64,000 bases of DNA from an uncultured Prevotellaceae bacterium (GCA_946415645.1 CAMKTJ010000011.1:2627-66626); one strand, 5' to 3'; positions 13,881 through 58,737 are shown, numbered from the stretch's first letter. Program-made: numbers and translations. The notes: generated by a model from the sequence alone, not told the origin.

Positions 13881-13940
13881 GGTTAGAGGTTAGAAGTTTG
13901 CGGTTAGCGGTTAGCGGTTAGCGAAATTATGAACTATGAA
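13881..13940. repeat. (GGTTAGN)6 heptamer array plus 25-nt block GGTTAGCGAAATTATGAACTATGAA
   Basis: The 25-nt block at 13916-13940 is identical to 15536-15560. It fills the intercistronic spacer. Confidence 0.9.
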
Positions 13941-15499
13941 TTACTCTTATGCTCCCACTCCTCTGTATGCTTGCCACTACCGGCAGGAGACGCAGGAGGA
14001 ACAATGCCAGAGTGAGACTTAATAGACCCCGGGTCCTTCAAAGCCTGCTCCAGGAACATCTGAGGTGTCACCTTGACGGGTTCCTTCATGAATTCAGGAC
14101 GGCTCCAGCTATACAAAGACATCTGGAAGTACGCAGGATCTTTCTGTGGTATCAGGAAAGCTTTGTGCACGCGACCATTCCTGTCGAAGTAAGCCAGATA
14201 GTCACGTGTATAGTTGCCGTCATCCCTACGACTCTCAAAGAGTATCCAACGGTCATTGCTAGAGAAAGAGGGATAACTCTCTGCCCTACGGCTGTTGATG
14301 GGCTTGGTATCAATGAGCTGACTCGTCTGCTGGTCGAGTATCTCTATCTGTGCCGATGGGTGCCAGATATGGAAGAGTCCGTTGGGCCCCTCTGCAAAGA
14401 CAACATAACGGTTGTCGCTGGTTACACGTTGCTCTACAGCGCTACGCTCCTTGCTGATGGCATCGTAGATAAGTTCAGGCTCGCCCAACTTGCGCGTTTT
14501 CATATCAAAGGGGGCACGATACAGATTATAACGTAACTGCTTGTAATGGTTCAGCGTCTCGTTCATACCATTGTTCATATCCTCGAACTCATGACGGGCA
14601 GAACAGAAATAGAGCCATTTGCCGTCAGGGCTCCAGGAAGGGAACAACTCCAACTCTATGCTATCAGCCAAAACGGTCTCCATGGTATTCTTCTCTACAT
14701 CATAGAAGACAATATCGCTGGCAGACTCCATCACCTCTACCTTGGTAATATCACGCGTGTGGAATGACTGCATAGTATGGTCAGTACTGAAGGCTATAAT
14801 AGGCAGCGTGGGATGCCATGAGGGGTAGACAGCAGCAGATATCATCTCGGGGGTCTTCAGGAGGATGTTCTTGAGCTTGCCATTATATACTATCATGGTT
14901 GCATCATGGCAGATACGGATGTGGAACATCATATTGTCTGTACGGTAGTTCTGATAGCTGTGGCAGTTGATGCAATGTCCCAGCTTCTCGGTACTGATCT
15001 GACGGGTATTGAAGATATCGCTCTCTGAGAAATCCTCCAGGCAACGCTGTCTGATGGCCAGATGCTCGAAACCCACGTAGGTAGGAGCCAAGGCACGGTA
15101 AGAAATATAGGGGTCAATACTATCAGGACTGACCTCTATGCTGAAAGGCTGGTAACGGCTCCATTTGTCTTGCTGCTTACAATAGACATCTACTGTCATC
15201 TTCTTGCCCTTGGCAGCAACCAGCAGTTTATGCCACTCGTCCTCTGGGATGAGAACCTTGTTACCCTTGCCGTAGTTGTATTCCGTTTCGCCCGCCTTGA
15301 TGTGAGCCACCACCTCATCGGCCTGCTCCACCATAAAGTTCAGGGGTGCAATATTAATAGGTACTGTTACATCGGTATAGTCGGGATAGATAGCAGGTTT
15401 CTCACTCTCCTGCTTATAATCCTGTGGCAAAGACGGATGACGGTTACAACCGCATAGCAGCAGTAATAGGAACAAGAGTGTTAGTATATATTGTTTCAT
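13934..15499 (-). CDS. TolB-like PD40 beta-propeller lipoprotein carrying a single CxxCH motif
   Basis: Lipobox LLLLCGC. PD40-type repeats FPSWSPDGKWLYF and YPSFSSNDRWILFESRRDDG. CINCH at residues 176-180 (nt 14960-14974). Confidence 0.8.
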   Translation of the reverse strand: MKQYILTLLFLLLLLCGCNRHPSLPQDYKQESEKPAIYPDYTDVTVPINIAPLNFMVEQADEVVAHIKAGETEYNYGKGNKVLIPEDEWHKLLVAAKGKKMTVDVYCKQQDKWSRYQPFSIEVSPDSIDPYISYRALAPTYVGFEHLAIRQRCLEDFSESDIFNTRQISTEKLGHCINCHSYQNYRTDNMMFHIRICHDATMIVYNGKLKNILLKTPEMISAAVYPSWHPTLPIIAFSTDHTMQSFHTRDITKVEVMESASDIVFYDVEKNTMETVLADSIELELFPSWSPDGKWLYFCSARHEFEDMNNGMNETLNHYKQLRYNLYRAPFDMKTRKLGEPELIYDAISKERSAVEQRVTSDNRYVVFAEGPNGLFHIWHPSAQIEILDQQTSQLIDTKPINSRRAESYPSFSSNDRWILFESRRDDGNYTRDYLAYFDRNGRVHKAFLIPQKDPAYFQMSLYSWSRPEFMKEPVKVTPQMFLEQALKDPGSIKSHSGIVPPASPAGSGKHTEEWEHKSNS

Positions 15500-15501
15500 T
15501 G

Positions 15502-15560
15502 TTTAGGGGGTAGAGGTTAGGGGTTAGAGGTTAGAGGTTAGCGAAATTATGAACTATGAA
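15502..15560. repeat. (GGTTAGN)n heptamer array plus the same 25-nt block
   Basis: TTTAGGGGGTAGAGGTTAGGGGTTAGAGGTTAGAGGTTAGC followed by GAAATTATGAACTATGAA. Confidence 0.9.
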
Positions 15561-15566
15561 CTCCCC

Positions 15567-20600: not shown

Positions 20601-22293
20601 TAAGTATGGAAGCAATCTCGGAACTGAGACCAACCGTACTTTCATGGGCTATACTGCAACTCTGGACGGTAACGACCCTGTCATGAAGGAAATGATACTG
20701 GAGTTTTCACTTGACAAAGACACCAATGTAGAAATTGGCATTCGTACCAGCAACATGCTGAAGTCTGGCAGTCGGGCCACCAGCAACCAGGGACGTTTCC
20801 GTGTTGACTACTTCCGTCTGTACTCTATAGCCGAGCTACATGTACATGACTATACACATAACGGTATCTGCTCCTGCGATGGAGCGGAACGTTATGAAAC
20901 ACCCGAGAAATCAGGTTCATATTATCTATTGGACAATGCAGGCAAGGTGGAATGGTTCTCACAAATGGTGGCTGCCAACGGAGGTTCTACATCTTATTAC
21001 GCCAAATTGACTGCCGACATAGATTTTGAGCGCGAAGTTAATCTGCACCTGCCCATCGGCAAAACCAAAGGTAACAAATTCAAAGGTGTCTTTGAAGGAC
21101 AAGGACATCGCATCAAGAATATGGTCATCTATCGTCCACAGGACGAGGCACAAGGTTTCTTCGGATATTTACAAGGTAATTCCTCTTGTACCGTCAAGAA
21201 CCTTATCATTGACAAGAGTTGTTCCGTCATTGCACTTACCAAGGCTGCCGGACTGGCAGGTTCCTGCCAAAACACGGGTGCCACCATCACCATCGAGAAT
21301 TGTGTAAACGAAGCAACCGTGAACGTTACAGGGCAAGATGCAGCAGGCATCATAGGAGGACAGAACGATACGAACCCACGGTTTATAATCCGTAATTGTA
21401 TCAATACAGGCAATATCACATCCTCTCATTCTGATCCGTACGCCGGGGGTCTGTGCTGCTATCTGGGGAACAGCGAGAATACCATTGAGAATTTCATTAA
21501 TCTAGGCACTATAACTGGACATAAAGGAGGAAATATCGGGCGTATGTCGGGCAGTGTCAAAGGTATTGTAGATCTGTCTGATACAGAACAAAAGACTCAA
21601 GGTATTACTGAGGAACTCACCAGTGCAGACATCGCGAGCGGTGTACTGACCTATTATATAAATAATGTAGCAGGGAAAGAAGTGTTCTTCCAGACTCTAG
21701 GCGAAGACACATACCCAGTCCCCTTCAATACAAGTAAGTCTGTAAAGCAGATAAGCATTCCAGCCTGTGGCTATGCCACCTATGTTGCAGAGGGCAATGT
21801 GCTGTTCCCTCCCGCTCTTGGAGCACATGCCGTTGTTTCCACGGACAACAACTATGCAAAACTCTCAGATCCTATTGCTGAAGCAGCTGCTGGCGACCCT
21901 ATCCTACTGAAGGCAGTAGCAGGCAACTACTGCTATAACCCGGCTGCATCTGCCACCAGCCCAGACGTCAACCTGCTCCAGGCAGCTACAAAGGATATTG
22001 TATGCGACGGGACACAATACTGCCTTGCAGACCAAGAACAGGGCATAGGTTTTTATAAGGTAGCCACAGGCAGCAACATTCCAGCAGGAAAGGCATACCT
22101 GACTATTACAGGCAATGATACAAGAGCATTCTACGGTTTTGAACCCAATAACGAGACGGGAATAAATGAAGAATTAAGAATGAAGAGTGAAGAATTAAAT
22201 GCAGACTCTGCATACAATCTGGCAGGAGTGCGAGCCACAAAAAAAACAAAAGGCACATACATTGTAAAAGGTAAGAAATTTATAAGAAAATAA
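17692..22293 (+). CDS. giant secreted multidomain glycosidase: GH115-like N-terminal catalytic region, lectin/CBM-like modules, GLUG-motif region, T9SS-type C-terminal tail
   Basis: The start is moved to MKLKLLSIALFLLSAISITKAQ (signal peptide). RGTIYAIYSFSERILGVPPLWYW resembles the GH115 signature. FEGQGHRIKNMVI..GFFGYL..VKNLII..AGLAGS matches the GLUG pattern. The end is YNLAGVRATKKTKGTYIVKGKKFIRK. Confidence 0.8.
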   Translation: MKLKLLSIALFLLSAISITKAQDKNISIEKNNAWIQIPASEKSQVLLAVQALQKDFNKVLNFTPSIVRTNTTKEGVRIIVVNEENPDGKALIEHPRELDDFESHRVYADTLTNSIVLHGKDMRGTIYAIYSFSERILGVPPLWYWCSWQPVVKENILIPGNYDYFCPSPQVRYRAWFPNDQDLFVPWRAKSTQNNELWLETMLRLKLNTVEKEATVTNSGTLNSEAMLYKKYGLVLTSHHMVALNNSFSNWDSYWKNVRNMTPPTLSVNDLKSLKEFWQFSIDAVMNSGVENLWQVAFRGKSDQPFWEIFSDAPTSEKERGRIISEMVKIQYDMICQSTGDPNPFVRMTFYDEISSLLAKGYITPPVATNMLWTFVAGRRDHYPFDDIVQWQNTDNVQLGYYMNLQFYSTGAHLAPAEGPWKMEDNYRYVQSKGKQTFSVVNAGNVREFLMEMAANAAMMWNADTYNTNDYLLSYCKQYFGEEHAQEIADLYHDFYYSYWCQKKSDFPGGFDRQYIFQDLRHERAIKQINDKWGSFTANPLSDIGYESIPGRSFRIEGSNQVDSIIAGTGREMVSFANVAERCDAMISQIPAAQRTFFYDNLAAYAHYMSHVSACLHYFALAYKNKENRYDNLTLSLAEMKAAKKALTDSQHDVFSTWYASDDKFAMDAKISMIQKRLEETPPFTIEAGKAYTIVNHNDENLFVQDNGTDILAMGAKNDNACWEFISTGKPNCFYIRNLATERYVQACPASSEVNITMGTTPVEYAIIDCSDQEGSHCFGFTSTNLSVTDFTTGCIGWNWKNDNTVQTYAAVAGTNHRSFWKLAETTYTKPDSQDAKEMTELISNSDFEETTGMIVDGTNFRGIPTGWHGWGIKGGTNYTQEPGVNNTTLLPKTSYGSNGGCSGTLHGEKSCWVNCSPMPDDFKLYQTINLPAGTYRISCLLSPMGTGDDNLTNLRLFAGDNACYFASADKYGSNLGTETNRTFMGYTATLDGNDPVMKEMILEFSLDKDTNVEIGIRTSNMLKSGSRATSNQGRFRVDYFRLYSIAELHVHDYTHNGICSCDGAERYETPEKSGSYYLLDNAGKVEWFSQMVAANGGSTSYYAKLTADIDFEREVNLHLPIGKTKGNKFKGVFEGQGHRIKNMVIYRPQDEAQGFFGYLQGNSSCTVKNLIIDKSCSVIALTKAAGLAGSCQNTGATITIENCVNEATVNVTGQDAAGIIGGQNDTNPRFIIRNCINTGNITSSHSDPYAGGLCCYLGNSENTIENFINLGTITGHKGGNIGRMSGSVKGIVDLSDTEQKTQGITEELTSADIASGVLTYYINNVAGKEVFFQTLGEDTYPVPFNTSKSVKQISIPACGYATYVAEGNVLFPPALGAHAVVSTDNNYAKLSDPIAEAAAGDPILLKAVAGNYCYNPAASATSPDVNLLQAATKDIVCDGTQYCLADQEQGIGFYKVATGSNIPAGKAYLTITGNDTRAFYGFEPNNETGINEELRMKSEELNADSAYNLAGVRATKKTKGTYIVKGKKFIRK
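22166..22200. repeat. intragenic heptamer array ATGAAGA-ATTAAGA-ATGAAGA-GTGAAGA-ATTAAAT
   Basis: Same unit family as 37042-37071 and 38681-38717. It is read as NEELRMKSEELN inside the GH115-like gene. Confidence 0.75.
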
Positions 22294-26908: not shown

Positions 26909-26918
26909 CCCTCTCCTT

Positions 26919-27004
26919 CTCCCCGAGGGGAGTGTAAGCACACAAAAATAGGACCCAGAAATCTGAGTCCTATTTTTATTTATAATTCCTCCCCCTCGGG
27001 GGAG
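26919..27004. repeat. two CTCCCC..GGGGAG mini-hairpins flanking a central terminator hairpin
   Basis: CTCCCCGAGGGGAG (26919-26932) and CTCCCCCTCGGGGGAG (26989-27004). The outer arms CCCTCTCCTTCTCC and GGAGACGGAGAGGGG are also complementary. Confidence 0.8.
26945..26976. terminator. bidirectional terminator between sialidase and secDF
   Basis: AAAATAGGAC..GTCCTATTTT stem flanked by A and T runs. Confidence 0.8.
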
Positions 27005-27019
27005 ACGGAGAGGGGTCAC

Positions 27020-30058: not shown

Positions 30059-30117
30059 TTTGTTAAATAATTATTGTTTTGTTGTTTATAAGTTTCGTTC
30101 AGTCAAAAAATAGTTCG

Positions 30118-30125
30118 CAAAGATA
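30118..30125 (-). promoter_or_regulatory. candidate -7 box (TAnnTTTG)
   Basis: TATCTTTG on the minus strand, 59 nt upstream of the secDF ATG. Confidence 0.45.
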
Positions 30126-30181
30126 CACATTTTTCCTTTACTAAATATAATTTGCACCAAAATTTATACATTAAAGGCATT

Positions 30182-32214: not shown

Positions 32215-32344
32215 AATTCCTAATTACGGCGCAAAAATACAAAAATAAAACAGAAAAGGCCCAATTACACGCATTCTAAAAGGTTTTTTTCGCATTTTCT
32301 TTCATTTTTTTACAAAAAAACTTGGGCTGTATGTCAAGAATACC

Positions 32345-32352
32345 TATTTTTG
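32345..32352 (+). promoter_or_regulatory. candidate -7 box (TAnnTTTG)
   Basis: TATTTTTG, 54 nt upstream of the hup ATG. Confidence 0.5.
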
Positions 32353-32406
32353 TGATACAATTTTTTGATTTAAACTAAATTTATAAACATCTAAAAACAC
32401 AAAGTT

Positions 32407-39401: not shown

Positions 39402-39432
39402 CTTTCCAGAAAACAACTTATTTAGGCAGGAA

Positions 39433-40897: not shown

Positions 40898-40920
40898 TGG
40901 GAATCGTATAAATAAAAACG

Positions 40921-40940
40921 CCCTCCCATTTGGGGGAGGG
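40921..40940. repeat. CCCTCCC-N6-GGGAGGG mini-hairpin
   Basis: CCCTCCCATTTGGGGGAGGG lies in the GH5-AraC spacer. Confidence 0.75.
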
Positions 40941-40956
40941 ACGGGGTGAGGGGCTA

Positions 40957-41832: not shown

Positions 41833-41950
41833 AATATTAAAATTGTGTAATTTTGGCTGCTAAGGTACGCAAAATATGCGAATTGCACAAATTTTACATC
41901 AAAAAGTAGCTAAAAGATGCAACATACGTATACATCTTAAATATTTTACG

Positions 41951-41958
41951 TACTTTTG
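41951..41958 (+). promoter_or_regulatory. candidate -7 box (TAnnTTTG)
   Basis: TACTTTTG, 40 nt upstream of ATG 41999. This supports the shorter GH2 start. Confidence 0.5.
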
Positions 41959-41998
41959 TACGCATTTAACCAATATTCAAACACTTATAGGACTAGCA

Positions 41999-45823: not shown

Positions 45824-45827
45824 CATT

Positions 45828-46343
45828 ATGGATTTGATACCAAGTTTTGCAGTTGACCATACCAATCTGCATCCAGGAATTTACATCTCCAGAAGAGATC
45901 AAGTTGGAGGTGAAGCAGTTACAACATACGACATCAGAATGACGTCACCCAATCAGGAGCCTGCCTTAGCGCCAGCCGCCATCCATACCATAGAGCATCT
46001 GGTGGCAACCTATCTGCGCAACGAGCCTGAGTGGAAGGATTATATCATCTATTGGGGACCTATGGGATGCCTTACGGGAAACTACCTGATTATGAAGGGA
46101 GAACATGACCCGGAAGTAATCAGACAACTGATGATAAAGGCGTTCCAGTTTGTGGTTGACTTCGAGGGAGAAGTACCAGGCACTACACCAGCCACCTGCG
46201 GCAACTGCCTGATGCACGACCTGCCTATGGCTAAATACGAAGCCAAACGATACGTGGAACGACTGAAGAACGAATTCTGCTGTACCTATCCTGGCGTAGA
46301 AAGACCGAAGGTACAAGGGAAGATGGATTTCTTTGATGCCTAA
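45828..46343 (+). CDS. luxS: S-ribosylhomocysteine lyase (AI-2 synthase)
   Basis: HTIEHL metal-binding motif and the ATCGNCLMHDL Cys region. 171 aa. Confidence 0.9.
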   Translation: MDLIPSFAVDHTNLHPGIYISRRDQVGGEAVTTYDIRMTSPNQEPALAPAAIHTIEHLVATYLRNEPEWKDYIIYWGPMGCLTGNYLIMKGEHDPEVIRQLMIKAFQFVVDFEGEVPGTTPATCGNCLMHDLPMAKYEAKRYVERLKNEFCCTYPGVERPKVQGKMDFFDA

Positions 46344-46350
46344 CCCTATA

Positions 46351-46387
46351 ATATCCCTCTTTGATGCTGAATATCAAAGGGGGATAT
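46351..46387. terminator. bidirectional terminator between luxS and the PHP phosphatase gene
   Basis: ATATCCCTCTTTGAT-GCTGAAT-ATCAAAGGGGGATAT (14/15 paired). The right arm overlaps the last codons of the minus-strand gene. Confidence 0.7.
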
Positions 46388-47090
46388 TTAGATAAGTAAG
46401 GAACTTTTCTGGCTTGTCGTTCATAATCAGTTCCTCAGGAAACTCTGTTTCTGCAAGAAGCGGATAGATGAAGTCATACCCTGCAATATCAAAAGCAAAA
46501 TGAGCATCGCTGCCCAGTATCACAGGAACCTGATATTGTTTACAGAGGCGAAGAATTTCCTTGTTGTTGGCCACAGCCGTTTCTTTGTGACGGACAGGAT
46601 TCAAACTACTGTTATTAATCTCCAACAGGGTCTTGGATTCTTTGGCAGCAAGAACAAGAGGCTCGAAGAACAAATCTGCCGTTCCATCGCCTGGATGACT
46701 GATGATATGCGTCCAGGGATTGCGGATAGCAGCCTCCACGCCAGCCGTATTCTCCTCTTTGGTTCCGCCCTCCCAACAAAGGGAATGAACACCGGCAATG
46801 CGGATATCCAGTTTCTTGTAGTAGTATTCGTCCAGATCCAATGTCCCCTTGGTATCCAGAATATTCAACTCTGCTCCCAACAGAAGGCGAACACCATACA
46901 GCTGACGGGGAACTACATGCAGATTCCTGAAATAGATGGGGTCGCAAGTCCCAGGGATACCTGGTGCATGCTCAGTAATGCCAAGAATCTGCAAGCCACG
47001 ATTCGCTGCCTCGCGCGCCATTTCCATAATAGTATTATAGGCATGGCCGCTGGCTATGGTGTGGGTATGTACATCCAGTAGTGTATTCAT
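46374..47090 (-). CDS. PHP-domain phosphatase (YcdX-like)
   Basis: DVHTHTIASGHAY, ITEHAP and GSDAH motifs. Confidence 0.85.
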   Translation of the reverse strand: MNTLLDVHTHTIASGHAYNTIMEMAREAANRGLQILGITEHAPGIPGTCDPIYFRNLHVVPRQLYGVRLLLGAELNILDTKGTLDLDEYYYKKLDIRIAGVHSLCWEGGTKEENTAGVEAAIRNPWTHIISHPGDGTADLFFEPLVLAAKESKTLLEINNSSLNPVRHKETAVANNKEILRLCKQYQVPVILGSDAHFAFDIAGYDFIYPLLAETEFPEELIMNDKPEKFLTYLNIPL

Positions 47091-47100
47091 TTTATTCTAT

Positions 47101-47160
47101 TCAAAATTCAAAAAGCAAAAATCAAAATTCAAAATTTTCTCTAATCCCTAATCCTAAATT
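47101..47160. repeat. (TCAAAAT)5 plus (CTAATCC)n heptamer arrays
   Basis: TCAAAATTCAAAAAGCAAAAATCAAAATTCAAAATTTTCTCTAATCCCTAATCCTAAATT. The minus strand encodes the last 14 codons and the stop of the RluA-like gene. Confidence 0.9.
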
Positions 47161-48756
47161 ATCAGGCAAAGTGTATTCCTTACCACCAATAACCAGTCTA
47201 TAGGCCTGAAGGCACAAATGCTCTGAAGAGGTTCCGTACAGACGGTCGCCCACAATGGGGTTATTCAGGCCTTCTGGATGTGCACAATGCACACGCAGCT
47301 GATGAGTCCTGCCTGTATGGGGTTGCAGTTCCACCAAAGCATGTCCTTCAATATTCTCTATTATCTTATAAGTCGTTACAGCCGTCTTTCCATGCTGATA
47401 ATCCACCATCTGACGGGGACGGTCCATTACATCAGGCCGTAAGGGCAGACGTATCTCGCCTTGCTGTCCTACAGGCATCTCTCTTTCCAAGAGGGCACGA
47501 TAAGTCTTCTGGATTCTATGATAGCGGAAGTCGTCTTGCAACTTATGGTACACCTCATCAGTAAGAGCTATGACCATCAGTCCGCATGTATCCATATCCA
47601 AGCGATGAACCATCATAGGTCCTGTGGCTTGTGGAAACATCTCTTTGACGATGCTCTGTACACTGGGCAGACCGTCTTTCCCTGGTACAGAGAGCATGCC
47701 ATGAGGTTTCGCTACAATGGCCATCTTTTCATTCTGAAAGATAACTTCCAGTTTATGGTTTCCCAGAGACAACAGCGGATTCTCCTCCACCTTCAACCCT
47801 TGCAGCATGTGCCCCAATATAGGTTTGCATCTGCTATTGCAAGAGGGATAGAAATGGCCTTCCTGTCGGAGTTCATCACGAGGTGAGTCTCCCACCCAGA
47901 ACTCTGCCATACAGAGTGGTTGCAGACCTTCCTTGTAGGCTGCCTGCAGCAAACGGGGAGCACAACATTCACCAGCACCGCTGGGAGGCGTAGCAGCAAA
48001 GAGTTCTGTCAGATTCTTGCTTTGGCCCTTTGCATTCAGGAAAGAGAACTGTTGGAATAACCATTGCTGGAGGGCTATACTACGATTATGACGCTCCTGT
48101 TGCAGTTGTGTTATCTGTTGTTGTAATTCGTGAGAGGGAGCCTCATCCGCCTCTATTCTTTGCTTCCATTCCTGCTGCAAACGTTTTAGCTCTGCCTTCT
48201 GGAATTGGCTCTGCCTGATCATCTCAGGTTCCCTTGTTACCAGCTCCTCTGCAGAAAGCTCTGCACGTAAACGGTGGCGTTCCTCCTTCTGTTGCTGCAT
48301 CTCTGCACGATAGGCATCCAGTTCTCTTTGCATCTGCTCACGCAGAGGGCTCTCCTTTATCTGAGCCTGCAAGGATGCTATTTGGGCATTGATAGATGAT
48401 ATCACCTCCTGCTCCTGCTGGAAATAACAACCAGGTTCCATTAAGTCGAAAACAGGAGGAACAAAGTATGAGTGACAGGTCTTACCGTCCAACGTACCTG
48501 AGAAAGCAGCCAAGAAAAGGACCCTCTCTCCAACCTCCCTTCGAGGAGGGAGGCTATCGTTTCTTCTGACTACCAAGACCCCAAACATCTTACCTGCCTT
48601 TAGTTCCTTGGCCCATTGCTTTTGGGTTTTCAGAAAGGCCTGCACTTCCTTTGCCGCCATCACACATAATGGATGAGGCTGATAGCAGAAGGGATAAGTG
48701 AATTCTTGTGGTAAGGATAATTCTGCCGATTCAGGAGGAAGGGCATGCAACATCAT
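47122..48756 (-). CDS. RluA-family pseudouridine synthase with ~335-aa N-terminal extension
   Basis: HRLDMDTCGLMV catalytic motif in the C-terminal half. The N-terminal half has a coiled-coil insert and Cys motifs. The ATG overlaps the upstream stop (ATGA at 48753-48756). Confidence 0.85.
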   Translation of the reverse strand: MMLHALPPESAELSLPQEFTYPFCYQPHPLCVMAAKEVQAFLKTQKQWAKELKAGKMFGVLVVRRNDSLPPRREVGERVLFLAAFSGTLDGKTCHSYFVPPVFDLMEPGCYFQQEQEVISSINAQIASLQAQIKESPLREQMQRELDAYRAEMQQQKEERHRLRAELSAEELVTREPEMIRQSQFQKAELKRLQQEWKQRIEADEAPSHELQQQITQLQQERHNRSIALQQWLFQQFSFLNAKGQSKNLTELFAATPPSGAGECCAPRLLQAAYKEGLQPLCMAEFWVGDSPRDELRQEGHFYPSCNSRCKPILGHMLQGLKVEENPLLSLGNHKLEVIFQNEKMAIVAKPHGMLSVPGKDGLPSVQSIVKEMFPQATGPMMVHRLDMDTCGLMVIALTDEVYHKLQDDFRYHRIQKTYRALLEREMPVGQQGEIRLPLRPDVMDRPRQMVDYQHGKTAVTTYKIIENIEGHALVELQPHTGRTHQLRVHCAHPEGLNNPIVGDRLYGTSSEHLCLQAYRLVIGGKEYTLPDNLGLGIRENFEF

Positions 48757-49310
48757 AGCAGTAACAGCGATTCCGGACCCATATTAAAGAGCAGGTCCAC
48801 AATACTTAAATCCTGCAAGAACCCATGCTTACGGGCAAAAACCTGATAATAAGGTTTCTCTACCTGAGGAAACTCTGGCAGTTCACCAGCATAAGCCGTG
48901 GTACGCGAGATGGGAGTTTCAATATCTATAAGGGAACAGATGAGACGAAGCAAATCCTCATTGAAATCAGCCAAGAACTCCCACTTCTTCTCATAGAAGG
49001 GTGCAAAATCGTCGGCATAATATTCAAAGAAAGGCGACTGCCGGTAACTGCTCAGCAAAGCATTCCAATGCAGATGTCGCCAATTGCCATGATCGCTGAT
49101 ACGGATGTCACGCATCAGCGCATGAGGGGCAGGCTTCTCTACAGGAATACTTAGGGGAAGGACTCCCTGTGGGCTGTCTATCATGCAACGGTTACGCAGC
49201 GTCTGCTTGCGATAATGGTCGTTCACCTCCAACAGCCCCCCTTCCTTAGCACGGAAGAGAGCCGAATAATGAGAGACGGGAGCAAGATAACAGCAGGGAA
49301 GGACAATCAT
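48753..49310 (-). CDS. WbqC-like family protein
   Basis: 185 aa. The N-terminus (CCYLAPVSHYSAL) and its position next to lepB are as I remember for the family. Recognition is from memory only. Confidence 0.65.
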   Translation of the reverse strand: MIVLPCCYLAPVSHYSALFRAKEGGLLEVNDHYRKQTLRNRCMIDSPQGVLPLSIPVEKPAPHALMRDIRISDHGNWRHLHWNALLSSYRQSPFFEYYADDFAPFYEKKWEFLADFNEDLLRLICSLIDIETPISRTTAYAGELPEFPQVEKPYYQVFARKHGFLQDLSIVDLLFNMGPESLLLL

Positions 49311-49358
49311 TCAAAATTCAAATATCAAAATTAGCTAACCACTAACCGCTAACCGCTA
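49311..49358. repeat. (TCAAAWT)3 plus (GCTAACC)3 heptamer arrays filling the lepB-wbqC spacer
   Basis: TCAAAATTCAAATATCAAAATTAGCTAACCACTAACCGCTAACCGCTA. Confidence 0.9.
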
Positions 49359-50813
49359 TTTGATATTATCCACTAGTCGGAACAAGCGGCTCCAACGGAC
49401 ATGATGGCCACTCAACCAAGAACGGTCGGCATCTGTACTCCACCAGATGATCAATGGTTTACCTACGATGTGGTCCTCAGGCACAAAGCCCCAGAAACGA
49501 CTGTCAGCTGAGCAATGGCGGTTGTCGCCCATCATCCAGTAATAGTCCATCTTGAAGGTATATTCCGTTGTTTCCTTGCCGTTGATAAGAATCTTACCCT
49601 CTGGAGTAACGTCCAGTGTATTGCCTTCATACACACGGATGGGACGCTCGTAGATAGGCAGATTCTCCAGTGTAAGATTAATCTTCTCGCCCTTCTTGGG
49701 AATCCAAATGGGACCATAGTTATCGCAAGTCCAACCAGTATATGCATTTTGAGGATAAAGCAAGGCTATCTCTTTTTCCTCCACAGGAGTTACGCCGTTA
49801 ACGTAAGCTGTCTGTTTCTCAAGCGCAGCCTTGGTTGCTTTGGTCAAAGGCAGCTGACCAGTCGCATACATATCTTTTACATCCTCCATGCGCAATCCCA
49901 ACTCGTGGCAGATATCTTCTGGCAGATAGCTGGTCTTAAGTTCAACGTTATACAGATACTGCACATTCTCGGCATCAGGATTTACCTTACCATCCAGATA
50001 CACCACCTTGTCCTTAATCTGCAAGGTCTGACCAGGAAGACCTACACAACGCTTTACATAGTTCTCGCGACGGTCAACAGGGCGGGTAGCAATCTCGCCG
50101 AAAGCATTAGAATTCTGTTTTATGAATTCCCTACCCATGTTATACACCATCTGGAAATACTGACGTTGTTGCAAAATAGTAAGGCTGTCCATGATGGGAA
50201 CAGGAATCTCAACCCGCTCCTGCCAACACTTATAGCCATAGATATAACAATAGTCGTAATACTGCGTCTGAAGTGCAGGATTTGTCAGGATGGTATCACC
50301 TGCAGGATAGTTGAATACCACAATATCGTTCAACTTTATGGGCTTGAGGGTTACACGTTTGTATTCCCACTGGGGCCATTCTATGTAGCTCTTACCCAGG
50401 TTAAAAGGCAAAGTGTGCTGACAAAGGGGCATATGCAAGGGAGTCTGAGGCACACGGGGACCATAGCTGAGTTTGGAAACCAACAGATAGTCGCCTACCA
50501 GAAGACTCTTCTCCAATGAACTGGAGGGGATAACGTAGTTCTGGAAGAAATATACGTTTACGAAGTATACAGCCACCAGGGCAAATACGATGGCATCCAC
50601 CCATCCCATTACGGTACGGACAAGGGGATTCTCGGCATCCTTCCACCACGTCCAGGGGATGAAACGGGTGACATAGGCATCAAAGATAAAGGGAAGTACA
50701 ATCAGTCCCCACCAGGCATCCACCCAATAGAGGAAAGCTATGTATAATGCACTGTATATGATGGCGCGAGCCCAATCGGCCCGTGTAGCCTTTTTTCTAT
50801 TCTTCTTAGTCAT
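49356..50813 (-). CDS. lepB: signal peptidase I
   Basis: [18 protein letters not shown] (catalytic Ser region) and [25 protein letters not shown]. Confidence 0.92.
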
Positions 50814-50816
50814 CTG

Positions 50817-51533
50817 TTAGAACTGGAATAAGTCAGACATTGTTAACAATCCCTCGTGAGTGGCCGTATACTCGGCAGCCAGAACGGCACCCATGGCAAA
50901 GCCTCTGCGGTTGTGGGCATCGTGGGTGATGGTTATCATATCCTCTGGAGAATCGTAGGTGATGGTATGAATACCGGGCACTTCCTTCTGGCGGATATCG
51001 TCAATGCGCAGCACCTCAGGCTTTGTCTCGTGCAGGCCCCAACGCTCCTTGCGGTCGAGGTTCTCTACAATCTGCTCTGCAAGGGTGATGGCTGTGCCAG
51101 AGGGAGCATCCAGTTTGTGTACGTGATGGGTCTCTACCATGTTCACGTCATACTGGTCGAACTGGTTCATTATCTTAGCCAGATACTTGTTGACAGCACC
51201 GAAGATAGCTACACCTACGCTGAAGTTGCTGGCCCAGAAGAGGGTCTTGCCTTCTGTAGTACAAGCCTTGCGCACCTCAGCCTCATGGTCCTTCATCCAA
51301 CCTGTTGACCCGCTTACCACCTTCACGCCTGCCTTCCAAGCCTTCAGGTAATTATCGTATGCCGTCCAAGGAGTAGTGAATTCTATGGCCACATCGGCAT
51401 TGGCAAAAGCCTCTGATTCAAACTCCTGCTGATTGTCGATGTCTATAATGCTTACTATCTCATGTCCTCTTGAGAGGGCTATCTCCTCTATCATCCGGCC
51501 CATCTTGCCGTATCCTATCAATGCAATTTTCAT
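50817..51533 (-). CDS. dapB: 4-hydroxy-tetrahydrodipicolinate reductase
   Basis: MKIALIGYGKMG NAD-binding motif and ETHHVHKLDAPSGTA. Confidence 0.95.
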   Translation of the reverse strand: MKIALIGYGKMGRMIEEIALSRGHEIVSIIDIDNQQEFESEAFANADVAIEFTTPWTAYDNYLKAWKAGVKVVSGSTGWMKDHEAEVRKACTTEGKTLFWASNFSVGVAIFGAVNKYLAKIMNQFDQYDVNMVETHHVHKLDAPSGTAITLAEQIVENLDRKERWGLHETKPEVLRIDDIRQKEVPGIHTITYDSPEDMITITHDAHNRRGFAMGAVLAAEYTATHEGLLTMSDLFQF

Positions 51534-51555
51534 ACCATATTATATATTTCACGTG

Positions 51556-51563
51556 CAAAAGTA
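51556..51563 (-). promoter_or_regulatory. candidate -7 box (TAnnTTTG)
   Basis: TACTTTTG on the minus strand, 22 nt upstream of the dapB ATG. Confidence 0.5.
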
Positions 51564-51585
51564 ATGCTTTTAGGCCAAAATTCAC

Positions 51586-51593
51586 TACTTTTG
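51586..51593 (+). promoter_or_regulatory. candidate -7 box (TAnnTTTG)
   Basis: TACTTTTG, 33 nt upstream of ATG 51627. Confidence 0.5.
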
Positions 51594-51626
51594 TATATAA
51601 AATTAAGTTAATGAGGATTGTAACGT

Positions 51627-52841
51627 ATGGAAAAGTTGCTCCATTACGTGTGGAAACATAAGATTCTCCCCCTGAAAGCATTGCTAACGACAGACGGCCG
51701 GGAGGTGGAAATCATAGACCCTGGTATCCATAATACCGATCAAGGGCCTGATTTTTTTAATGCCAAGATCAAGATTGGCGGAACGCTGTGGGCAGGAAAT
51801 GTAGAGCTGCATCTGAAGTCATCCGACTGGTTCAAGCATGGGCACGACATAGATTCCGCCTACAACAATACCATCCTGCATGTGGCTCAGGACATCGACT
51901 GCAAGGTTACTACCGAGGAAGGCAACCATCCTCCACAGTTGCAACTGGATATCCCTGCTCATCTGTACCTAAGCTATCAGGAACTTTGCCAGACGGACGA
52001 TTATCCGCGTTGCCACCGCATCATCCCTTCTATCCCCACCATGAAGGCTCACATGTGGATGGATGCCTTGTTGGCTGAACGCATGAAGGAAAGAGCTCAG
52101 AAGGTGCAGGACAGGGCCGACCGTCTGAATGGCGACTGGGAGCAGGCAACCTTCGTCACACTCTGTCGTAACTTCGGTTTCGGCTTAAATGGCGATACCT
52201 TCGAGCGATGGGCTATGATGATTCCTCTGAAGAGTGTGGGCAAGCACAGGGATAATCTGTTCCAGGTGGAGGCCATCTTCTTAGGAATGGCAGGTTTGAT
52301 AGAGGATGCAGGACAGATAAAGGGCGCTGAAATGGCAGAAAAGTGGAAGCGCGAGTTTGCCTTCCTCTCCCACAAGTTCCAACTGCCCGAGCCCATGAAG
52401 GCTAGCGAGTGGCGATTCCTACGTACCCGACCCAAGAACTTCCCCCACATCCGCATCCTGCAGATAGCCGAGCTTTACCATAGCGGCAAGGCGCAGATGT
52501 CGGCTCTGATAGAGGCCAAAGACATCAAGGAGATGCACAGGCTCCTGGCCGTTGGCGGCACATCGGCCAACAGTCGCAAGTTGCTTATCGTCAACACCAT
52601 AGTACCTCTGCTTTATGCCTATGGCATTCACAGAAGCGAGGAGAAACTCATCCAGAAAGCTACGGCTTTGCTGGAGGAACTGCCAGCCGAGGACAACTAC
52701 ATCCTGCGTCAATGGAGGGCTTGCGGATTGAGCGTAGAGACAGCTGCCGACAGTCAGGCTTTGATACAACTGAAACGTGAATACTGCGACCGCAAGGACT
52801 GCCTTCGCTGTCGCTTTGCATATGAATTCTTAAAGCAATGA
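51627..52841 (+). CDS. DUF2851-like protein
   Basis: LLHYVWKHK..GPDFFNAKIKI..GNVELHLKSSDWFKHGH matches my memory of the DUF2851 N-terminus. C-terminal CxxC (CLRCRF). Confidence 0.75.
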   Translation: MEKLLHYVWKHKILPLKALLTTDGREVEIIDPGIHNTDQGPDFFNAKIKIGGTLWAGNVELHLKSSDWFKHGHDIDSAYNNTILHVAQDIDCKVTTEEGNHPPQLQLDIPAHLYLSYQELCQTDDYPRCHRIIPSIPTMKAHMWMDALLAERMKERAQKVQDRADRLNGDWEQATFVTLCRNFGFGLNGDTFERWAMMIPLKSVGKHRDNLFQVEAIFLGMAGLIEDAGQIKGAEMAEKWKREFAFLSHKFQLPEPMKASEWRFLRTRPKNFPHIRILQIAELYHSGKAQMSALIEAKDIKEMHRLLAVGGTSANSRKLLIVNTIVPLLYAYGIHRSEEKLIQKATALLEELPAEDNYILRQWRACGLSVETAADSQALIQLKREYCDRKDCLRCRFAYEFLKQ

Positions 52842-53242
52842 AATACGTATATGAACTGAAGATGAAGGTACGCGACTATGAGTGCGACCTTCAGGGCATT
52901 GTCAACAATGCCAACTACCAACATTACACAGAACACACCCGTCATGAGTTTCTCTTGCAGGCAGGCATCAGCTTTGCCGATATGCACAACCGTGGCATAG
53001 ATGCCGTAGTGGCACGACTGAAGATGGCCTTCAAGGTTCCCCTGAAGAGTGGCGACGAGTTTGTATGCCGCATGCGCATCAAGAAGGAGGGCGTGCGCTT
53101 TGTCTTCTATCAGGATATCTTCCGCCTGCCAGACGAGACGATGGTGCTGCGCAGTCAGATAGATACCGTCTGCGTGGTGAACGGACAGCTGGGCGAGTGT
53201 CCAGAGTTGGAAACCTTGTTGGAACCCTATCTGGAGAAATGA
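52838..53242 (+). CDS. 4HBT/YbgC-type acyl-CoA thioesterase
   Basis: VRDYECDLQGIVNNANYQHYTEHTRHEFL hot-dog-fold motif. ATGA overlap with the upstream gene. Confidence 0.85.
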   Translation: MKYVYELKMKVRDYECDLQGIVNNANYQHYTEHTRHEFLLQAGISFADMHNRGIDAVVARLKMAFKVPLKSGDEFVCRMRIKKEGVRFVFYQDIFRLPDETMVLRSQIDTVCVVNGQLGECPELETLLEPYLEK

Positions 53243-54369: not shown

Positions 54370-55835
54370 GCCGAGATATTATTCAGACAGAGTGGCCCTC
54401 TGGCATCCGTAACGGAGATTCTGAGAGCTGTGGCTTCTATCGTTGGGAAGCGCAGAATACGTTTATAGCCAATGGTGGTTGTGGGTTCGCCTGCATCCAC
54501 CATTTGCCATTTATTGCCTACGAGGGCTTCTACCTGGAAGGCTTTCACGCGCTGACCCAGTGGGATGTATTCCTGCAAGAGCAGGCGGTTCACCTTGGTG
54601 GGTTGTTTGAAGGTAAAGGTCACTATGCCAGTATGCTCGCCATCAGGTGTGGCCCAATAGGTATCCCAATTGCCGTCGTTCAGGTTCTTAGCCGCGAATT
54701 TCTTGCCTCTGGTGCTGCTGGCCGAAGCCTTAGCCTTACGCAACAGATCGGTCTTCAGGTCCTGCATAATCATCTGATGGAAGGCAACGGCATTGGCGCT
54801 GTCTATGGCATTCACCCTACCCTCGCGATCCACAGGGAAGTTCAGCAACAGCGTGGCATTGTGCCCTACCGATTTATAATACAGGTCCACCAACTGCTCT
54901 GGGGTCTTTACCTTAGAGTCCTCCTCTGGGTGATAGAACCAACCGGGACGGATAGAGACATCGCACTCAGCAGCAATCCAAGTGTCGCCATCAGGATGCC
55001 CCGTAGTCAGCTCTTTGCTTTTGTTATAGCCCGGATAGACTTCTTTCTGGCGCAGGAACGACCAGTTGGTAGCACCTGCCTCGCCCCTTTCATTTCCCAC
55101 CCAACGGCAACCAGGACCGCCATCGCTGAAGATGATAGCCTTTGGCTGATACTCCAGGATGATAGAGTGAATCTTGGGGAAGTTGTAATAATTCCTACGG
55201 TCAATCTTGCGCTTCTCCTTGGCTCCTCCGTAGTAGCCGTCGCCACCATTGGCACCATCCAGCCACACCTCAAAGAGGGGACCGTACTCCGTAACCAACT
55301 GCGTCAGCTGCTGGTGGTAGTAATCCACGTATGCCTGCCTACCGTATTCAGCATGATTTCTGTCCCATGGCGACAGATATACGCCCATCTTCAGGCCGTA
55401 TTTGTCGCAAGCCTTACGCAGTTCTGCCAGCACATCCACCTTGCCGTCCTTGTTCTTAGGACCGTCATAGGAGGAATGGGTGATGTTGTAATCCGTCAGC
55501 GGAGAGGGCCACATAGCAAAGCCGTCGTGATGCTTAGCCACAATAATCACGCCCTTCATGCCAGCCTGCTTGAAGGTGCGCACCCACTGCTCCACATCCA
55601 TGCGGCTGGGGTTGAAAACCTTGGGGTCGGCATCGCCATAGCCCCACTCGCTATCGTTGAAGGTGTTCAGCCCATAGTGCACAAAGGCATACGTCTCCAT
55701 CTTCTGCCACTCCACCTGCTGAGGCAGAGGCAGAGGGGGGATAGGAGTTTGGGCAAATATAGATAAGGAGAGGAAGAGAAAGCCCCCTCCGACTCCCCCT
55801 TTGGGGGAGAGAATTATCTTGATGATATTATACAT
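54351..55835 (-). CDS. alpha-L-fucosidase (GH29) with C-terminal F5/8-type-C (discoidin) domain
   Basis: VAKHHDGFAMWPS and the C-terminal ASSTRGKKFAAKNLNDGNWDTYWAT. The 3' end overlaps dprA convergently by 19 nt. Confidence 0.9.
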   Translation of the reverse strand: MYNIIKIILSPKGGVGGGFLFLSLSIFAQTPIPPLPLPQQVEWQKMETYAFVHYGLNTFNDSEWGYGDADPKVFNPSRMDVEQWVRTFKQAGMKGVIIVAKHHDGFAMWPSPLTDYNITHSSYDGPKNKDGKVDVLAELRKACDKYGLKMGVYLSPWDRNHAEYGRQAYVDYYHQQLTQLVTEYGPLFEVWLDGANGGDGYYGGAKEKRKIDRRNYYNFPKIHSIILEYQPKAIIFSDGGPGCRWVGNERGEAGATNWSFLRQKEVYPGYNKSKELTTGHPDGDTWIAAECDVSIRPGWFYHPEEDSKVKTPEQLVDLYYKSVGHNATLLLNFPVDREGRVNAIDSANAVAFHQMIMQDLKTDLLRKAKASASSTRGKKFAAKNLNDGNWDTYWATPDGEHTGIVTFTFKQPTKVNRLLLQEYIPLGQRVKAFQVEALVGNKWQMVDAGEPTTTIGYKRILRFPTIEATALRISVTDARGPLCLNNISAYFANR

Positions 55836-55852
55836 AGCGATTATTGGTTAAC

Positions 55853-55908
55853 GAATTGAATTTTGAATTTTGAATTTTGAATCCCTCCCCCTAAAGGGGG
55901 TCGGGGGG
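55853..55908. repeat. (GAATTTT)3-4 array followed by a C5-TAAA-G5 mini-hairpin
   Basis: GAATTGAATTTTGAATTTTGAATTTTGAAT then CCCTCCCCCTAAAGGGGGTCGGGGGGTC. Confidence 0.9.
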
Positions 55909-57057: not shown

Positions 57058-57337
57058 CAAAATTTCTCTTTTTCCAACGCCAGAAAAGCACAAAATTTCA
57101 CCTTCCGCACCTTCATTCTTTTACTTCTTCTTTTCATTACAAAAAGAAAAATCATTACACAAAAAACACCCCCAATCAGGTAGCGAAAACGCCCCTACGA
57201 GGCAGAATTTGTTCCCTAACTAGGGAATTATTGCGCCCTAGTGTAGTAACAATTGTCACTATTAGTAGTAGCAAAATGGCGTGTTTTACGGGCGCAATGA
57301 GAGGTTGGAAAAATCGAGACATCGCAAGAGAAAGAAT

Positions 57338-57539
57338 GTGATTTTGTGACTGTGACTTTGTGACATTTAGTATGTACCATACACCACAAAAGCACAGGCA
57401 CAGAGAGGCACACAGCTGAGGAATAACAAAGTAATTATTTAATATATATTAATATATTTATCTCCCCTATCCCCCTTTGCTCCTCACCTTGCACATACGG
57501 TAGTACCTTAATGTCACAAAGTCACAGTCACAAAGTCAC
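57338..57539. repeat. 29-bp inverted repeat pair (28/29 match) built of GTGAC heptamers, separated by 144 bp
   Basis: Left arm GTGATTTTGTGACTGTGACTTTGTGACAT (57338-57366). Right arm ATGTCACAAAGTCACAGTCACAAAGTCAC (57511-57539). Confidence 0.9.
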
Positions 57540-57614
57540 GTATTACGTAGGCCTTGTGAATATAACTTTATGAAATTTAGGTGCTTCGTTAATACAACGA
57601 GCCAGAATTATTGC

Positions 57615-57622
57615 TATCTTTG
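57615..57622 (+). promoter_or_regulatory. candidate -7 box (TAnnTTTG)
   Basis: TATCTTTG, 22 nt upstream of ATG 57645. Confidence 0.5.
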
Positions 57623-57644
57623 CATCATCAAAAACCATTAAACT

Positions 57645-58610
57645 ATGCAATATCTGATTCGTCTGAGCCGCTGGCTTGCCAGCAATGCCTCTCTGTTTAT
57701 CATCGCCATTGCCGTGCTGACATTCTTTGTACCTGATCTCTTTGTGTGGGTAAGAGGTACCACACAGACCGTGATTCTGGGTATTATCATGCTGACAATG
57801 GGTCTGACGCTTACCACGGACGACTTCCGCATCCTTGCCCGTCGCCCCCTGGATATACTGATTGGTGCCTGTGCGCAGTTCTTCATCATGCCCTGCGTGG
57901 CTTACGTGCTGGTGAAGGTTTTCAACTTAGAGCCTGCTTTGGCATTGGGCATCCTGCTGGTTGGATGCTGTCCGGGTGGTGTAAGCAGCAACATCATGTC
58001 GTACCTCTGTCATGGCGATGTAGCCTTCTCTGTGGGCATGACCTGCGCCTCTACCCTACTGGCCCCTGTAATGACCCCCTTGCTGATGCAACTGACCGCT
58101 GGCGAGATTATTGAGATTGACGCCATTGGGATGTTCCTGAATATCCTGATAGTTACCATCATTCCCGTTGGAATCGGTTGTTTCCTGAACTATACCTATT
58201 CCAAGAGCAAGCACTTCCCCACCATACAGAGCCTGATGCCAGGACTGAGCGTAATCTGCCTGGCATGCATAGTAGGTGGCGTTATCAGTACGGTTCACGA
58301 CAGCCTGATAGCACGTGGCCTCTGGCTGTTCCTATGGACCTTTGCCGTGGTCTTCTGCCACAACACACTGGGATATGTGCTGGGATATACAGCAGGCAAG
58401 ATTTCTGGCTTCAACAAGGCCAAGAAGCGCACCATCAGCATAGAGGTGGGCATGCAGAATGCAGGTCTGGCCACGGTCTTAGCAGGCAACTTCTTTGCCG
58501 CTCAGCCCCTTGCTGTTCTGCCTTGCGCCATCAGTTGTGCCTGGCATAGCATCAGCGGCACCATCCTGGCAGGCCTTTTCCTGAGATTCGACAAGAAACA
58601 TGCAGCATAA
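57645..58610 (+). CDS. bile acid:sodium symporter (BASS) family transporter
   Basis: GILLVGCCPGGVSSNIMSYL signature in a multi-TM 321-aa protein. Confidence 0.85.
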   Translation: MQYLIRLSRWLASNASLFIIAIAVLTFFVPDLFVWVRGTTQTVILGIIMLTMGLTLTTDDFRILARRPLDILIGACAQFFIMPCVAYVLVKVFNLEPALALGILLVGCCPGGVSSNIMSYLCHGDVAFSVGMTCASTLLAPVMTPLLMQLTAGEIIEIDAIGMFLNILIVTIIPVGIGCFLNYTYSKSKHFPTIQSLMPGLSVICLACIVGGVISTVHDSLIARGLWLFLWTFAVVFCHNTLGYVLGYTAGKISGFNKAKKRTISIEVGMQNAGLATVLAGNFFAAQPLAVLPCAISCAWHSISGTILAGLFLRFDKKHAA

Positions 58611-58614
58611 TTTC

Positions 58615-58737
58615 TTAGGGGCAAGGGGCAAGTGATTAGGGGCAAGAGGATAGTTCTACACATGCCCTTAATCTCTTAAACCCTTTAAGCTTTGACTCGG
58701 TTATCTATTCTCTTGCTCCTTGCCCCTTGCCCCTTAA
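58615..58737. repeat. inverted (AGGGGCA)n / (TGCCCCT)n arrays forming a long hairpin after the BASS gene
   Basis: TTAGGGGCAAGGGGCAAG (58615-58632) pairs with CTTGCCCCTTGCCCCTTAA (58719-58737) with one bulge. Confidence 0.85.

Follow-up and report, generated by a model that had tools for sequence, protein, structure and literature searches.

The 64,000-nucleotide (nt) stretch analysed here, called the window below, comes from an uncultured Prevotellaceae bacterium (GCA_946415645.1 CAMKTJ010000011.1:2627-66626) and carries, mostly at its gene boundaries, short tandem arrays whose units differ in sequence and share a period of 7 nt. According to gene calls made with our own caller, which is based on open reading frames (ORFs), the coding share of the window is 93% and the intergenic share 6.9%. 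The genes are of ordinary housekeeping and glycan-degradation types, and the gene content, with a fused SecDF, a 485-aa signal peptidase I (LepB) and XerD, is of the Bacteroidota type. Neither HIP1 sites nor Rfam families or tRNAs were found in the window. Tandem Repeats Finder (TRF) reported 16-18 period-7 arrays and recovered, within a few bases, nearly all of those located in a preliminary description of the same DNA; two others (37189-37204 and 47139-47160) were read directly in the sequence. The arrays and array pairs are the following:

2442-2466: TTAGACT x 3.6, overlapping the stop codon of the gene that ends at 2452 (TRF; absent from the preliminary description)
13880-13949: composite cassette of CGGTTAG x 6.3, CGAAAT and TATGAAC x 2 (TRF, array part 13880-13923)
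15503-15566: second copy of the composite cassette, TTAGAGG x 5.6, CGAAAT and TATGAAC x 2.1 (TRF, 15503-15541 and 15548-15562, the latter absent from the preliminary description)
22165-22195, + strand: AATGAAG x 4.4, in the linker of a 1533-aa GH115 protein, 98 nt before its stop codon
37043-37071: TGAAGAA x 4.1, left arm of an inverted pair whose right arm is 37222-37245, followed closely by a promoter-like TAnnTTTG box belonging to the next gene
37124-37157: GATTAGG x 4.3, with a variant-unit order shared with 38739-38762 on the opposite strand
37189-37204: GGTTAGN x 2.3, short (read in the sequence, not by TRF)
37222-37245: TCTTCAC x 3.4, right arm of the pair with 37043-37071, supplying the last codons of xerD (RVKSEE) and its stop
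38681-38714: GTGAAGA x 5.0, supplying the last codons of aroQ and its stop
38739-38770: AATTCCT x 4.6, also scoring as period 14
47099-47136: ATTCAAA x 5.4, filling a 31-nt spacer and containing the stop codon of the RluA-fusion gene
47139-47160: CTAATCC x 3, within the 3' end of the RluA-fusion ORF (read in the sequence; one unit more in the contig L081)
49309-49332: ATTCAAA x 3.4, continuing into the start codon of the WbqC-like gene
49334-49358: GCTAACC x 3.6, with the lepB stop codon as its edge
55856-55882: TTGAATT x 3.9, perfect, with a decayed GGTTA(N) unit before it and a G+C-rich hairpin after it
57337-57539: inverted pair of GTGAC type (57337-57364 and 57513-57539), with 44-nt arms, 84% complementary, around a 114-nt core, and period 14 (6+8)
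58617-58650 and 58712-58735: AGGGGCA array and its reverse complement, directly after the stop codon of a BASS-family transporter gene (TRF, 58617-58632 and 58712-58735)

The GTGAC-type pair had been counted among the arrays of period 7; its inverted repeat is real (44 nt, 84%), but the 6+8 period is not a clean 7. Of the 18 window arrays that reach 2.8 copies, 14 are of period 7, as are 41 of 56 in close relatives. The placement at gene boundaries that the preliminary description had proposed was borne out, as 12 of these 14 arrays lie in the intergenic 6.9% or across ORF ends. The excess is far above what composition would give, since the 5.4 kb of intergenic pieces hold 12 period-7 arrays with at least 2.8 copies against a mean of 0.02 per dinucleotide shuffle (maximum 1 over 200 shuffles). 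Co-directional, divergent and convergent spacers all hold arrays in the window and its relatives (1.1-2.8 per kb), which rules out confinement to one spacer class. Arrays called inside genes mostly stand just downstream of over-extended start calls, and the others lie in large secreted glycoside hydrolases, ~96 nt before the stop codon, where a variable linker leads up to a conserved motif at the C-terminus. The only array deep within a window gene, 22165-22195, is of this kind; by our reading of the sequence its frame stays open because unit 2 has TTA in place of TGA. The motif itself, ...YNL[SA][AG][QV]R...G[IT][NY]I[IV][NK]GKK[IF]..., is common to large secreted glycoside hydrolases (window 22200-22293 and 45740-45823; L002 18950-19043) and may be a candidate sorting signal.

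The comparison set comprised 161 fetched loci besides the window. Protein searches with XerD matched Prevotellaceae/Bacteroidaceae metagenome-assembled genomes (MAGs) from the rumen of goat, sheep, cattle, yak and buffalo, with 7 loci at 94-95% identity, ~20 loci at 77-80%, and Paraprevotella, Phocaeicola and Prevotella at 57-75%; the coding DNA of the closest species by XerD is 77-88% identical to that of the window. A metagenome scan with the WbqC-like protein added two contigs apparently of the same species, L081, which is 99.1% identical to window 38764-52835, and L082, whose encoded query protein is 99% identical and whose DNA is 93-97% identical. Exact-protein look-ups for further same-species contigs left two queries without a match, and one led to contig L161 (Logan contig SRR14597532_505587), which begins exactly at the gene after the arrays downstream of aroQ; short-read assemblers appear to break at arrays. 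The density of period-7 arrays is 2.2 per 10 kb in the window (64 kb), 3.2 in the closest species (130 kb), 2.2 in species at 77-80% XerD identity (385 kb), 0.5 in more distant relatives (794 kb) and 0.23 in mostly human-gut relatives (861 kb), where period 7 is not dominant. The arrays are thus a property of a rumen Prevotellaceae clade.

When rotations and both strands are merged, ~200 arrays comprise 77 distinct units, a limited repertoire that is common to several species and to unrelated sites. The commonest are TGAAGAA (21 arrays), TTAAGAA (11), GTGAAAA (8), GAATTTT (7), AGGGGCA (7) and variants of GGTTAGN (5 and 4), and the window alone contains 8 array pairs of identical family against 0.14 expected for random composition-matched 7-mers. 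The units are ~70% A+T and strand-asymmetric, one strand being G-poor. Array lengths show a sharp peak at 30-32 nt (71 of 252 arrays) and small peaks at 24 and 38, while a 15-16 nt class is at chance level; the lengths fit 7n+3 (24, 31, 38) with n = 4 preferred, as would be expected if slippage were seeded by 3-nt microhomology. Four full units are present in 116 of 275 distinct arrays. In 257 of the 275 the unit contains neither GGG nor CCC, and only the AGGGGCA family could form a G-quadruplex; since 110 of those 257 arrays also have four units, G-quadruplex potential is not needed for the preference. Successive doubling (7 to 14 to 28) was ruled out as the source of the four-unit mode, as columns with an ABAB pattern are rare (9) in comparison with single-unit variants.

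Arrays of the same family also tend to face each other. Of the neighbour pairs within 300 nt, 25 are inverted and 10 direct, in agreement with the inverted pairs reported at the outset; their arms are typically ~31 nt, able to form stems of 28-33 bp, and on inspection of the pair list 24 of the 25 inverted pairs have the C-poor arm 5' and the G-poor arm 3'. A related polarity is seen with respect to genes. In 80 of 111 arrays (40 of 53 stop-proximal and 40 of 58 start-proximal) the G-rich strand, read 5' to 3', leads away from the closest gene boundary and into the spacer; these counts include orthologous sites and rest on our own gene calls. The preliminary description had singled out 37042-37071 and 55853-55882 as departing from an orientation rule based on stop codons. 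Both are start-proximal and fit the inward course of the G-rich strand.

Where a spacer contains promoter-like (TAnnTTTG) or terminator-like sequence, it has no array and is conserved from species to species, examples being 30059-30181, 32206-32406, 38110-38256, 41833-41875 and 46344-46373. Spacers with arrays are hypervariable, and at one and the same junction sister species differ in unit or copy number, have unrelated inverted pairs, or have no array. XerD always ends 1-5 codons after a conserved EHHPRNI[KR], with or without an array, and an abutting array supplies tail and stop. Five indels separate the window from L081 over the 14 kb at 99.1% identity. Three are single bases in homopolymers and the fourth, a single case, is exactly one CTAATCC unit (7 nt) at window position 47145, so that unit-by-unit slippage, one of the origins that had been suggested for the arrays, is visible between strains. 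The fifth is a 50-nt cassette, (GGTTAGN)4 + CGTAAC + (TATGAAC)2, that L081 has and the window lacks at junction 52836; in the window a DUF2851 gene and a thioesterase gene overlap there through an ATGA stop/start. The same composite stands in the window at two other places, 13880-13949 and 15503-15566.

Within the window, arrays of one family at unrelated sites have a common variant-unit order and common non-repeat flanks. The cassette at 15503-15566 and the stretch 13866-13949 are 79% identical over 84 nt, the array at 38681-38714 is 91% identical over 34 nt to 37039-37072, and that at 49334-49358 is 90% complementary over 29 nt to 13900-13928. Segmental duplication was ruled out as the origin of the twin cassettes at 13.9 and 15.5 kb, as the flanking genes are not paralogues and their proteins are unrelated. 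In L054, too, an element with heptamer arrays as terminal repeats occurs in two copies that have a core in common. Gain, loss or copying of whole modules is therefore in part directly visible, and in part would have to be supposed from such likenesses.

Two further observations concern the same comparison. Sequence identity of the window to L081 changes in two steps, from 99.1% to 96.0% and then to 85.6%, which coincide exactly with the array junctions 52836 and 55737-55903, and recombination tracts may end at arrays, on the anecdotal evidence of these two cases. In addition, the divergent spacer ahead of the BASS-family transporter gene includes ~460 nt (57100-57560), with the GTGAC inverted pair and an A+T-rich TATATA core, for which L081 has no counterpart. 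L048, L066 and L002 hold elements with similar ends (arrays of ATGACAG, TATACAG and GTTGACA) and A+T-rich cores, which align unconvincingly.

Taken together, these patterns lead us to favour, with modest confidence, the view that the arrays are a fast-evolving satellite, growing by 7-nt slippage, copied or lost as modules of ~31 nt, and persisting only where selection allows, comparable to a satellite-DNA-like library that would colonise unconstrained gene junctions in a rumen Prevotellaceae clade. In such a process, slipped-strand mispairing adds or removes single 7-nt units, as the L081 allele shows. Modules of about four units (~31 nt = 4x7+3), often arranged as convergent inverted pairs, and composites of two arrays would then be copied to junctions or lost from them. 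Purifying selection would set where they persist, namely at ORF ends, in protein linkers and in spacers that hold no conserved promoter or terminator, and would also set their orientation, with the G-rich, C-poor and stop-rich strand presented to the incoming ORF and the G-poor strand towards the downstream start. The supply of stop codons and short C-terminal tails, the separation of otherwise overlapping genes and the long hairpins in transcripts would be side effects.

Several points weigh against this view. The sharp four-unit mode is at odds with simple stepwise slippage, which predicts monotonic lengths. No transposase, reverse transcriptase, RAYT (the transposase associated with repetitive extragenic palindromes, REP) or HutP-like gene was seen among the approximately 40 of 45 called window genes that were scanned, and the search within the 64-kb window found no enzyme or mechanism for the copying of modules. 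At junction 52836 the more distant relative L085 also has a GGTTAGN array, so the window allele may be a loss or a recombination import rather than an "empty site". The Xanthomonas repeat GGGAATC, which has the same polarity (PMC4692102), contains by our inspection no stop triplet on either strand, and the orientation may therefore have a cause other than selection acting on stops and upstream AUGs. Finally, many of the loci are orthologous, so that array counts are not independent, and the counts depend on gene calls that missed at least one window gene (52838-53242).

The copying step could instead be the work of non-autonomous mobile elements similar to miniature inverted-repeat transposable elements (MITEs) or to REPINs, in which a convergent pair of ~31-nt arrays around a short core would be moved by an enzyme encoded elsewhere and solo arrays would be halves or decayed copies. 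The excess of inverted over direct neighbours, nearly all of one polarity, and the near-perfect arms over 28-33 bp are what such elements would show. In L054, two non-orthologous MITE-like copies (6247-6455 and 11830-11976) have heptamer arrays of the GTGAAAA/TTTTCAC type as terminal inverted repeats and a common core beginning TTCCTACCGGAAGAG. The presence or absence of the 50-nt cassette and of the ~460-nt GTGAC-pair stretch between the window and L081 also points this way, as do different species that carry, at one junction, arms of a different unit with matching complementarity. Against this, ~80% of the arrays are solo (~50 of 249 are in detected inverted pairs), the polymorphic 50-nt cassette is not an inverted pair, and comparison of the filled and empty sites at 52836 shows no visible target-site duplication. 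The cores of pairs other than those of L054 had no clear homology to one another, dozens of unit sequences would have to be recognised, and the window itself holds no transposase. We consider mobile elements of this kind an unlikely source for the arrays as a whole.

Equally unlikely, in our judgement, is a primary role as functional RNA or DNA structures, with the pairs acting as terminators, insulators or 3'-protective stem-loops, as REP sequences and bacterial interspersed mosaic elements (BIMEs) do in enterobacteria, and the solo arrays as unstructured spacers that set the translation of the next gene. Terminator arms had been among the roles first suggested, and they are structurally plausible, as inverted pairs fold with z-scores of -5 to -13; the pair in L022 reaches -66 kcal/mol (z = -12.8), that in L001 -38.8 (z = -7.3), and the AGGGGCA pair of the window, folded as RNA over 58605-58745, -57.5 kcal/mol (z = -6.6). 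At a given junction both arms vary in concert from one species to another, and the arrays apparently occupy transcribed positions (after stops, intercistronic, and in apparent 5' leaders, by our reading against promoter-like boxes), as do most Xanthomonas repeats (PMC4692102). On the other hand, the pairs form long A+T-rich stems with no T-run after them, a scan for intrinsic terminators over 36-50 kb picked none at arrays, and the window arrays downstream of aroQ fold no better than shuffles (z = -1.6). Close relatives also manage without the arrays, L002 and L007 having none after aroQ and the window none at 52836, and the work of Rehm et al. on Xanthomonas brought no regulatory role of the repeats to light (PMC4692102).

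The contribution of the arrays to stop codons had suggested a different function, in which they would be selected as translational stops in all frames, ending read-through or frameshifted translation at gene boundaries. The underlying arithmetic is right, since 7 = 1 mod 3 and three stop-containing units therefore block every frame. The xerD, aroQ and RluA-fusion ORFs do end within arrays and the lepB stop does form an array edge, as had been described, and 25 ORFs in the data set end inside an array. The indel at 47145 provides one case in action; in our reading of the aligned sequences, the RluA-fusion tail ...GLGIRENFEF of the window becomes ...GLGIRD in the +7 allele, which terminates within two codons. 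Stop-proximal arrays show the stop-rich strand in sense 40:13, a bias inflated by the gene calling, in which an ORF runs on through any array that lacks a stop in the sense strand and the array then counts as genic. The units look richer in stops than background intergenic 7-mers (90% vs 53%), but the enrichment vanishes when distinct units are compared with composition-matched 7-mers (61 of 77 with a stop on at least one strand vs 72%, p = 0.11), and stop-codon content seems to follow mostly from A+T-richness. Start-proximal arrays mostly present the stop-poor strand to transcription, array-free relatives terminate at the same place, and the stop-free Xanthomonas unit has the same polarity. 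Selection for such stops is thus quite improbable as the reason for the arrays.

A little less probable still is recognition of the arrays, as DNA or RNA, by an oligomeric protein that would read a short core every 7 nt. Precedents exist in HutP, a ring protein that binds UAG-N4 repeats, and in regulators whose sites are heptameric direct repeats. The constant period, the variable filler and the preference for four units would suit such a protein, and cyclic alignment of the units gives the consensus nT[A/C]A[A/T/C][C/T]n, at 4.95 bits against 4.24 +/- 0.23 in controls, with one strand G-poor. This common pattern is weak, and a conserved core shared by all 77 units was ruled out. A single binding protein would also have to accommodate arrays in either orientation relative to transcription and sister species that swap in unrelated units at the same junction, and no candidate for it was found. 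Assembly or sequencing artefacts can be set aside with near certainty: L161 does end exactly where the array region downstream of aroQ begins, yet L081 and L082, independent assemblies from different projects, have the arrays at 49311-49355 identical base for base, L081 also has those at 47099-47160 with one extra unit, and arrays of the same kind recur in dozens of unrelated rumen MAGs, with arrays at orthologous junctions in many MAGs from several studies.

Other repeat classes occur as well. A second class with a constant period and different sequences consists of 21-23-nt units repeated in tandem 3-6 times; many of the units are palindromes, TATTTTCAAAGCTTGATAATA and TTGAATATACATGTATGTTCAA among them. 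Examples are found in the window (11550-11633) and in L015 (7047-7112), L017 (10959-11085) and L024 (10946-11027), and the window and the 161 loci together gave 131 TRF rows with at least 2.5 copies, overlapping rows counted. In mid-distance relatives these arrays fill the junction downstream of xerD where the window has heptamer arrays. They recall the "BrickBuilt" minisatellite of Porphyromonas gingivalis. Cassettes of G+C-rich hairpins of the type CCCTCCCC-loop-GGGGAGGG often adjoin heptamer arrays (window 26909-26935, 26989-27019, 37160-37186, 40921-40956 and 55884-55908), and the copy at 40921-40940 resembles an intrinsic terminator. At the dapB/lepB junction (equivalent to window 50814) such a cassette is present in L082 and L083 and not in the window, L081 or L085, which indicates that these cassettes, like the arrays, are gained or lost at gene junctions. 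A third element, of ~70 nt, reads CTGCGATTAAG[C/T]GAGAG...GATGCTCGCATCA...GGCTCGA and lies within a heptamer array in L004 (10939-11009) and L005 (11082-11152), the array being of TGAAGAA type in one species and of TTCAATG type in the other; a search of the window for this element gave no copy. It resembles the small dispersed repeats that Elhai reportedly described in 2008 inside cyanobacterial heptamer arrays. Lastly, an 87-nt direct repeat, 71% identical (window 59286-59372 and 60000-60086), covers the ends of two adjacent genes, the following spacer and a start codon, and may reflect tandem paralogues.

The arrays have practical weight whatever their origin, as they supply stop codons and variable C-terminal tails, coincide with assembly breaks, flag hypervariable junctions in rumen MAGs and possibly mark the ends of recombination tracts. 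With regard to known systems, some other intergenic repeats are similar in layout: the REP/BIME and REPIN elements of proteobacteria and the BOX and Correia elements are also short intergenic mosaic cassettes, often with inverted pairs, hairpins in transcripts and presence or absence among strains. To our knowledge none of them is built of 7-nt tandem units. REPINs are tied to the RAYT transposase, which was looked for here in the window only, and no conserved end motif was seen in the heptamer arrays.

It had been stated that the arrays could not be matched to any described class of element, which proved wrong. Literature searches gave no report of heptamer repeats in Prevotella, but the class itself has been described. 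The arrays belong to the heptanucleotide simple-sequence repeats (SSRs), a kind of repeat known since the short tandemly repeated repetitive (STRR) sequences of cyanobacteria and including the heptameric SSRs (PMC4679880, PMC4692102). As relayed in these two papers, Mrazek 2007 found heptanucleotide repeats to be the commonest long SSRs (LSSRs, 5-11-nt units) in many prokaryotes, phylogenetically scattered, proposed polymerase slippage as their cause, and explained the exclusion of heptamers from coding DNA by 7 not being a multiple of 3 (PMC4679880, PMC4692102). The present arrays resemble LSSRs in having a tandem unit above chance, in the dominance of period 7 and, in a single case, in a one-unit step between strains. 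They differ in that the LSSR is a statistical category which, as far as the relayed account goes, is silent on modules, inverted pairs and polarity.

A closer parallel in placement is the set of TAACTGA direct repeats reported by MacGregor 2015 in marine Beggiatoaceae, 15 cyanobacteria and five Bacteroidetes, which form intergenic sets of 2-6 copies, often a few nt upstream of a start codon; closely related strains differ there by steps of 7 nt, some neighbours have no repeats at the corresponding junction, and Elizabethkingia, Gramella and Aequorivita contain mixtures of heptamers (PMC4679880). Intergenic 7-nt sets, 7-nt indels and array-free junctions in relatives are common to both systems. 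In contrast, the window has no dominant unit and no consistent placement forward and just upstream of starts, and membership in the TAACTGA family was ruled out, as the window, searched for TAACTGATAACTGA with up to 1 mismatch allowed, gave no match.

The STRR of cyanobacteria have units such as CCCCAGT, TTGGTCA and CAACAGT. They comprise several tandem heptamer families in non-coding DNA, with mixed arrays side by side in one spacer (PMC4679880), and accounts of a "range of repeating heptamers" in Microcystis (PMC4679880) and of heptamers in Calothrix (as cited in PMC4692102) describe the same diversity in outline. The 77 distinct units, the recurrent families and the mixed arrays in non-coding DNA found here are of this kind; the unit sequences are different, and the host is not a heterocyst-forming cyanobacterium, as the absence of HIP1, the Bacteroidota genes and the Prevotellaceae relatives indicate.

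The most detailed likeness is with the GGGAATC repeats of Xanthomonas and the GGGGAYT repeats of Nostoc described by Rehm 2015, which are 89-93% intergenic, lie near the 3' end of the upstream ORF, show a four-unit mode and 70-75 convergent pairs, and have their G-rich strand as the coding strand downstream of ORFs and as the non-coding strand upstream (PMC4692102). They also vary strongly in length and sequence between close species, no function was found for them, and the preference for four units was attributed to G-quadruplex formation (PMC4692102). The intergenic bias, four units, convergent pairs, polarity of the G-rich strand and variability are all shared with the arrays of the rumen Prevotellaceae, which differ in their Bacteroidota host, in having ~77 mostly A+T-rich units without G-quadruplex potential, and in that divergent spacers are not depleted. 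As the Prevotellaceae units are mostly unable to form a G-quadruplex, the explanation given by Rehm for the four-unit preference cannot apply here, and the occurrence of four units, pairs and polarity in such units means that a more general cause must be sought. What is new is the host lineage, the many A+T-rich unit families, and the four-unit preference and polarity without G-quadruplex potential. It is tempting, if speculative and on present evidence improbable, to regard the heptamer arrays of Bacteroidota, Xanthomonas and cyanobacteria as one class defined by structure, made or moved by a common DNA transaction rather than by generic slippage or selection for G-quadruplexes. Its signature may be a 7-nt unit, an array length of four units plus 3 nt, convergent pairing, and a purine- or G-rich strand directed inward from the flanking genes; if so, the multi-family, quadruplex-free arrays of the rumen Prevotellaceae would be the material in which the common class shows itself.

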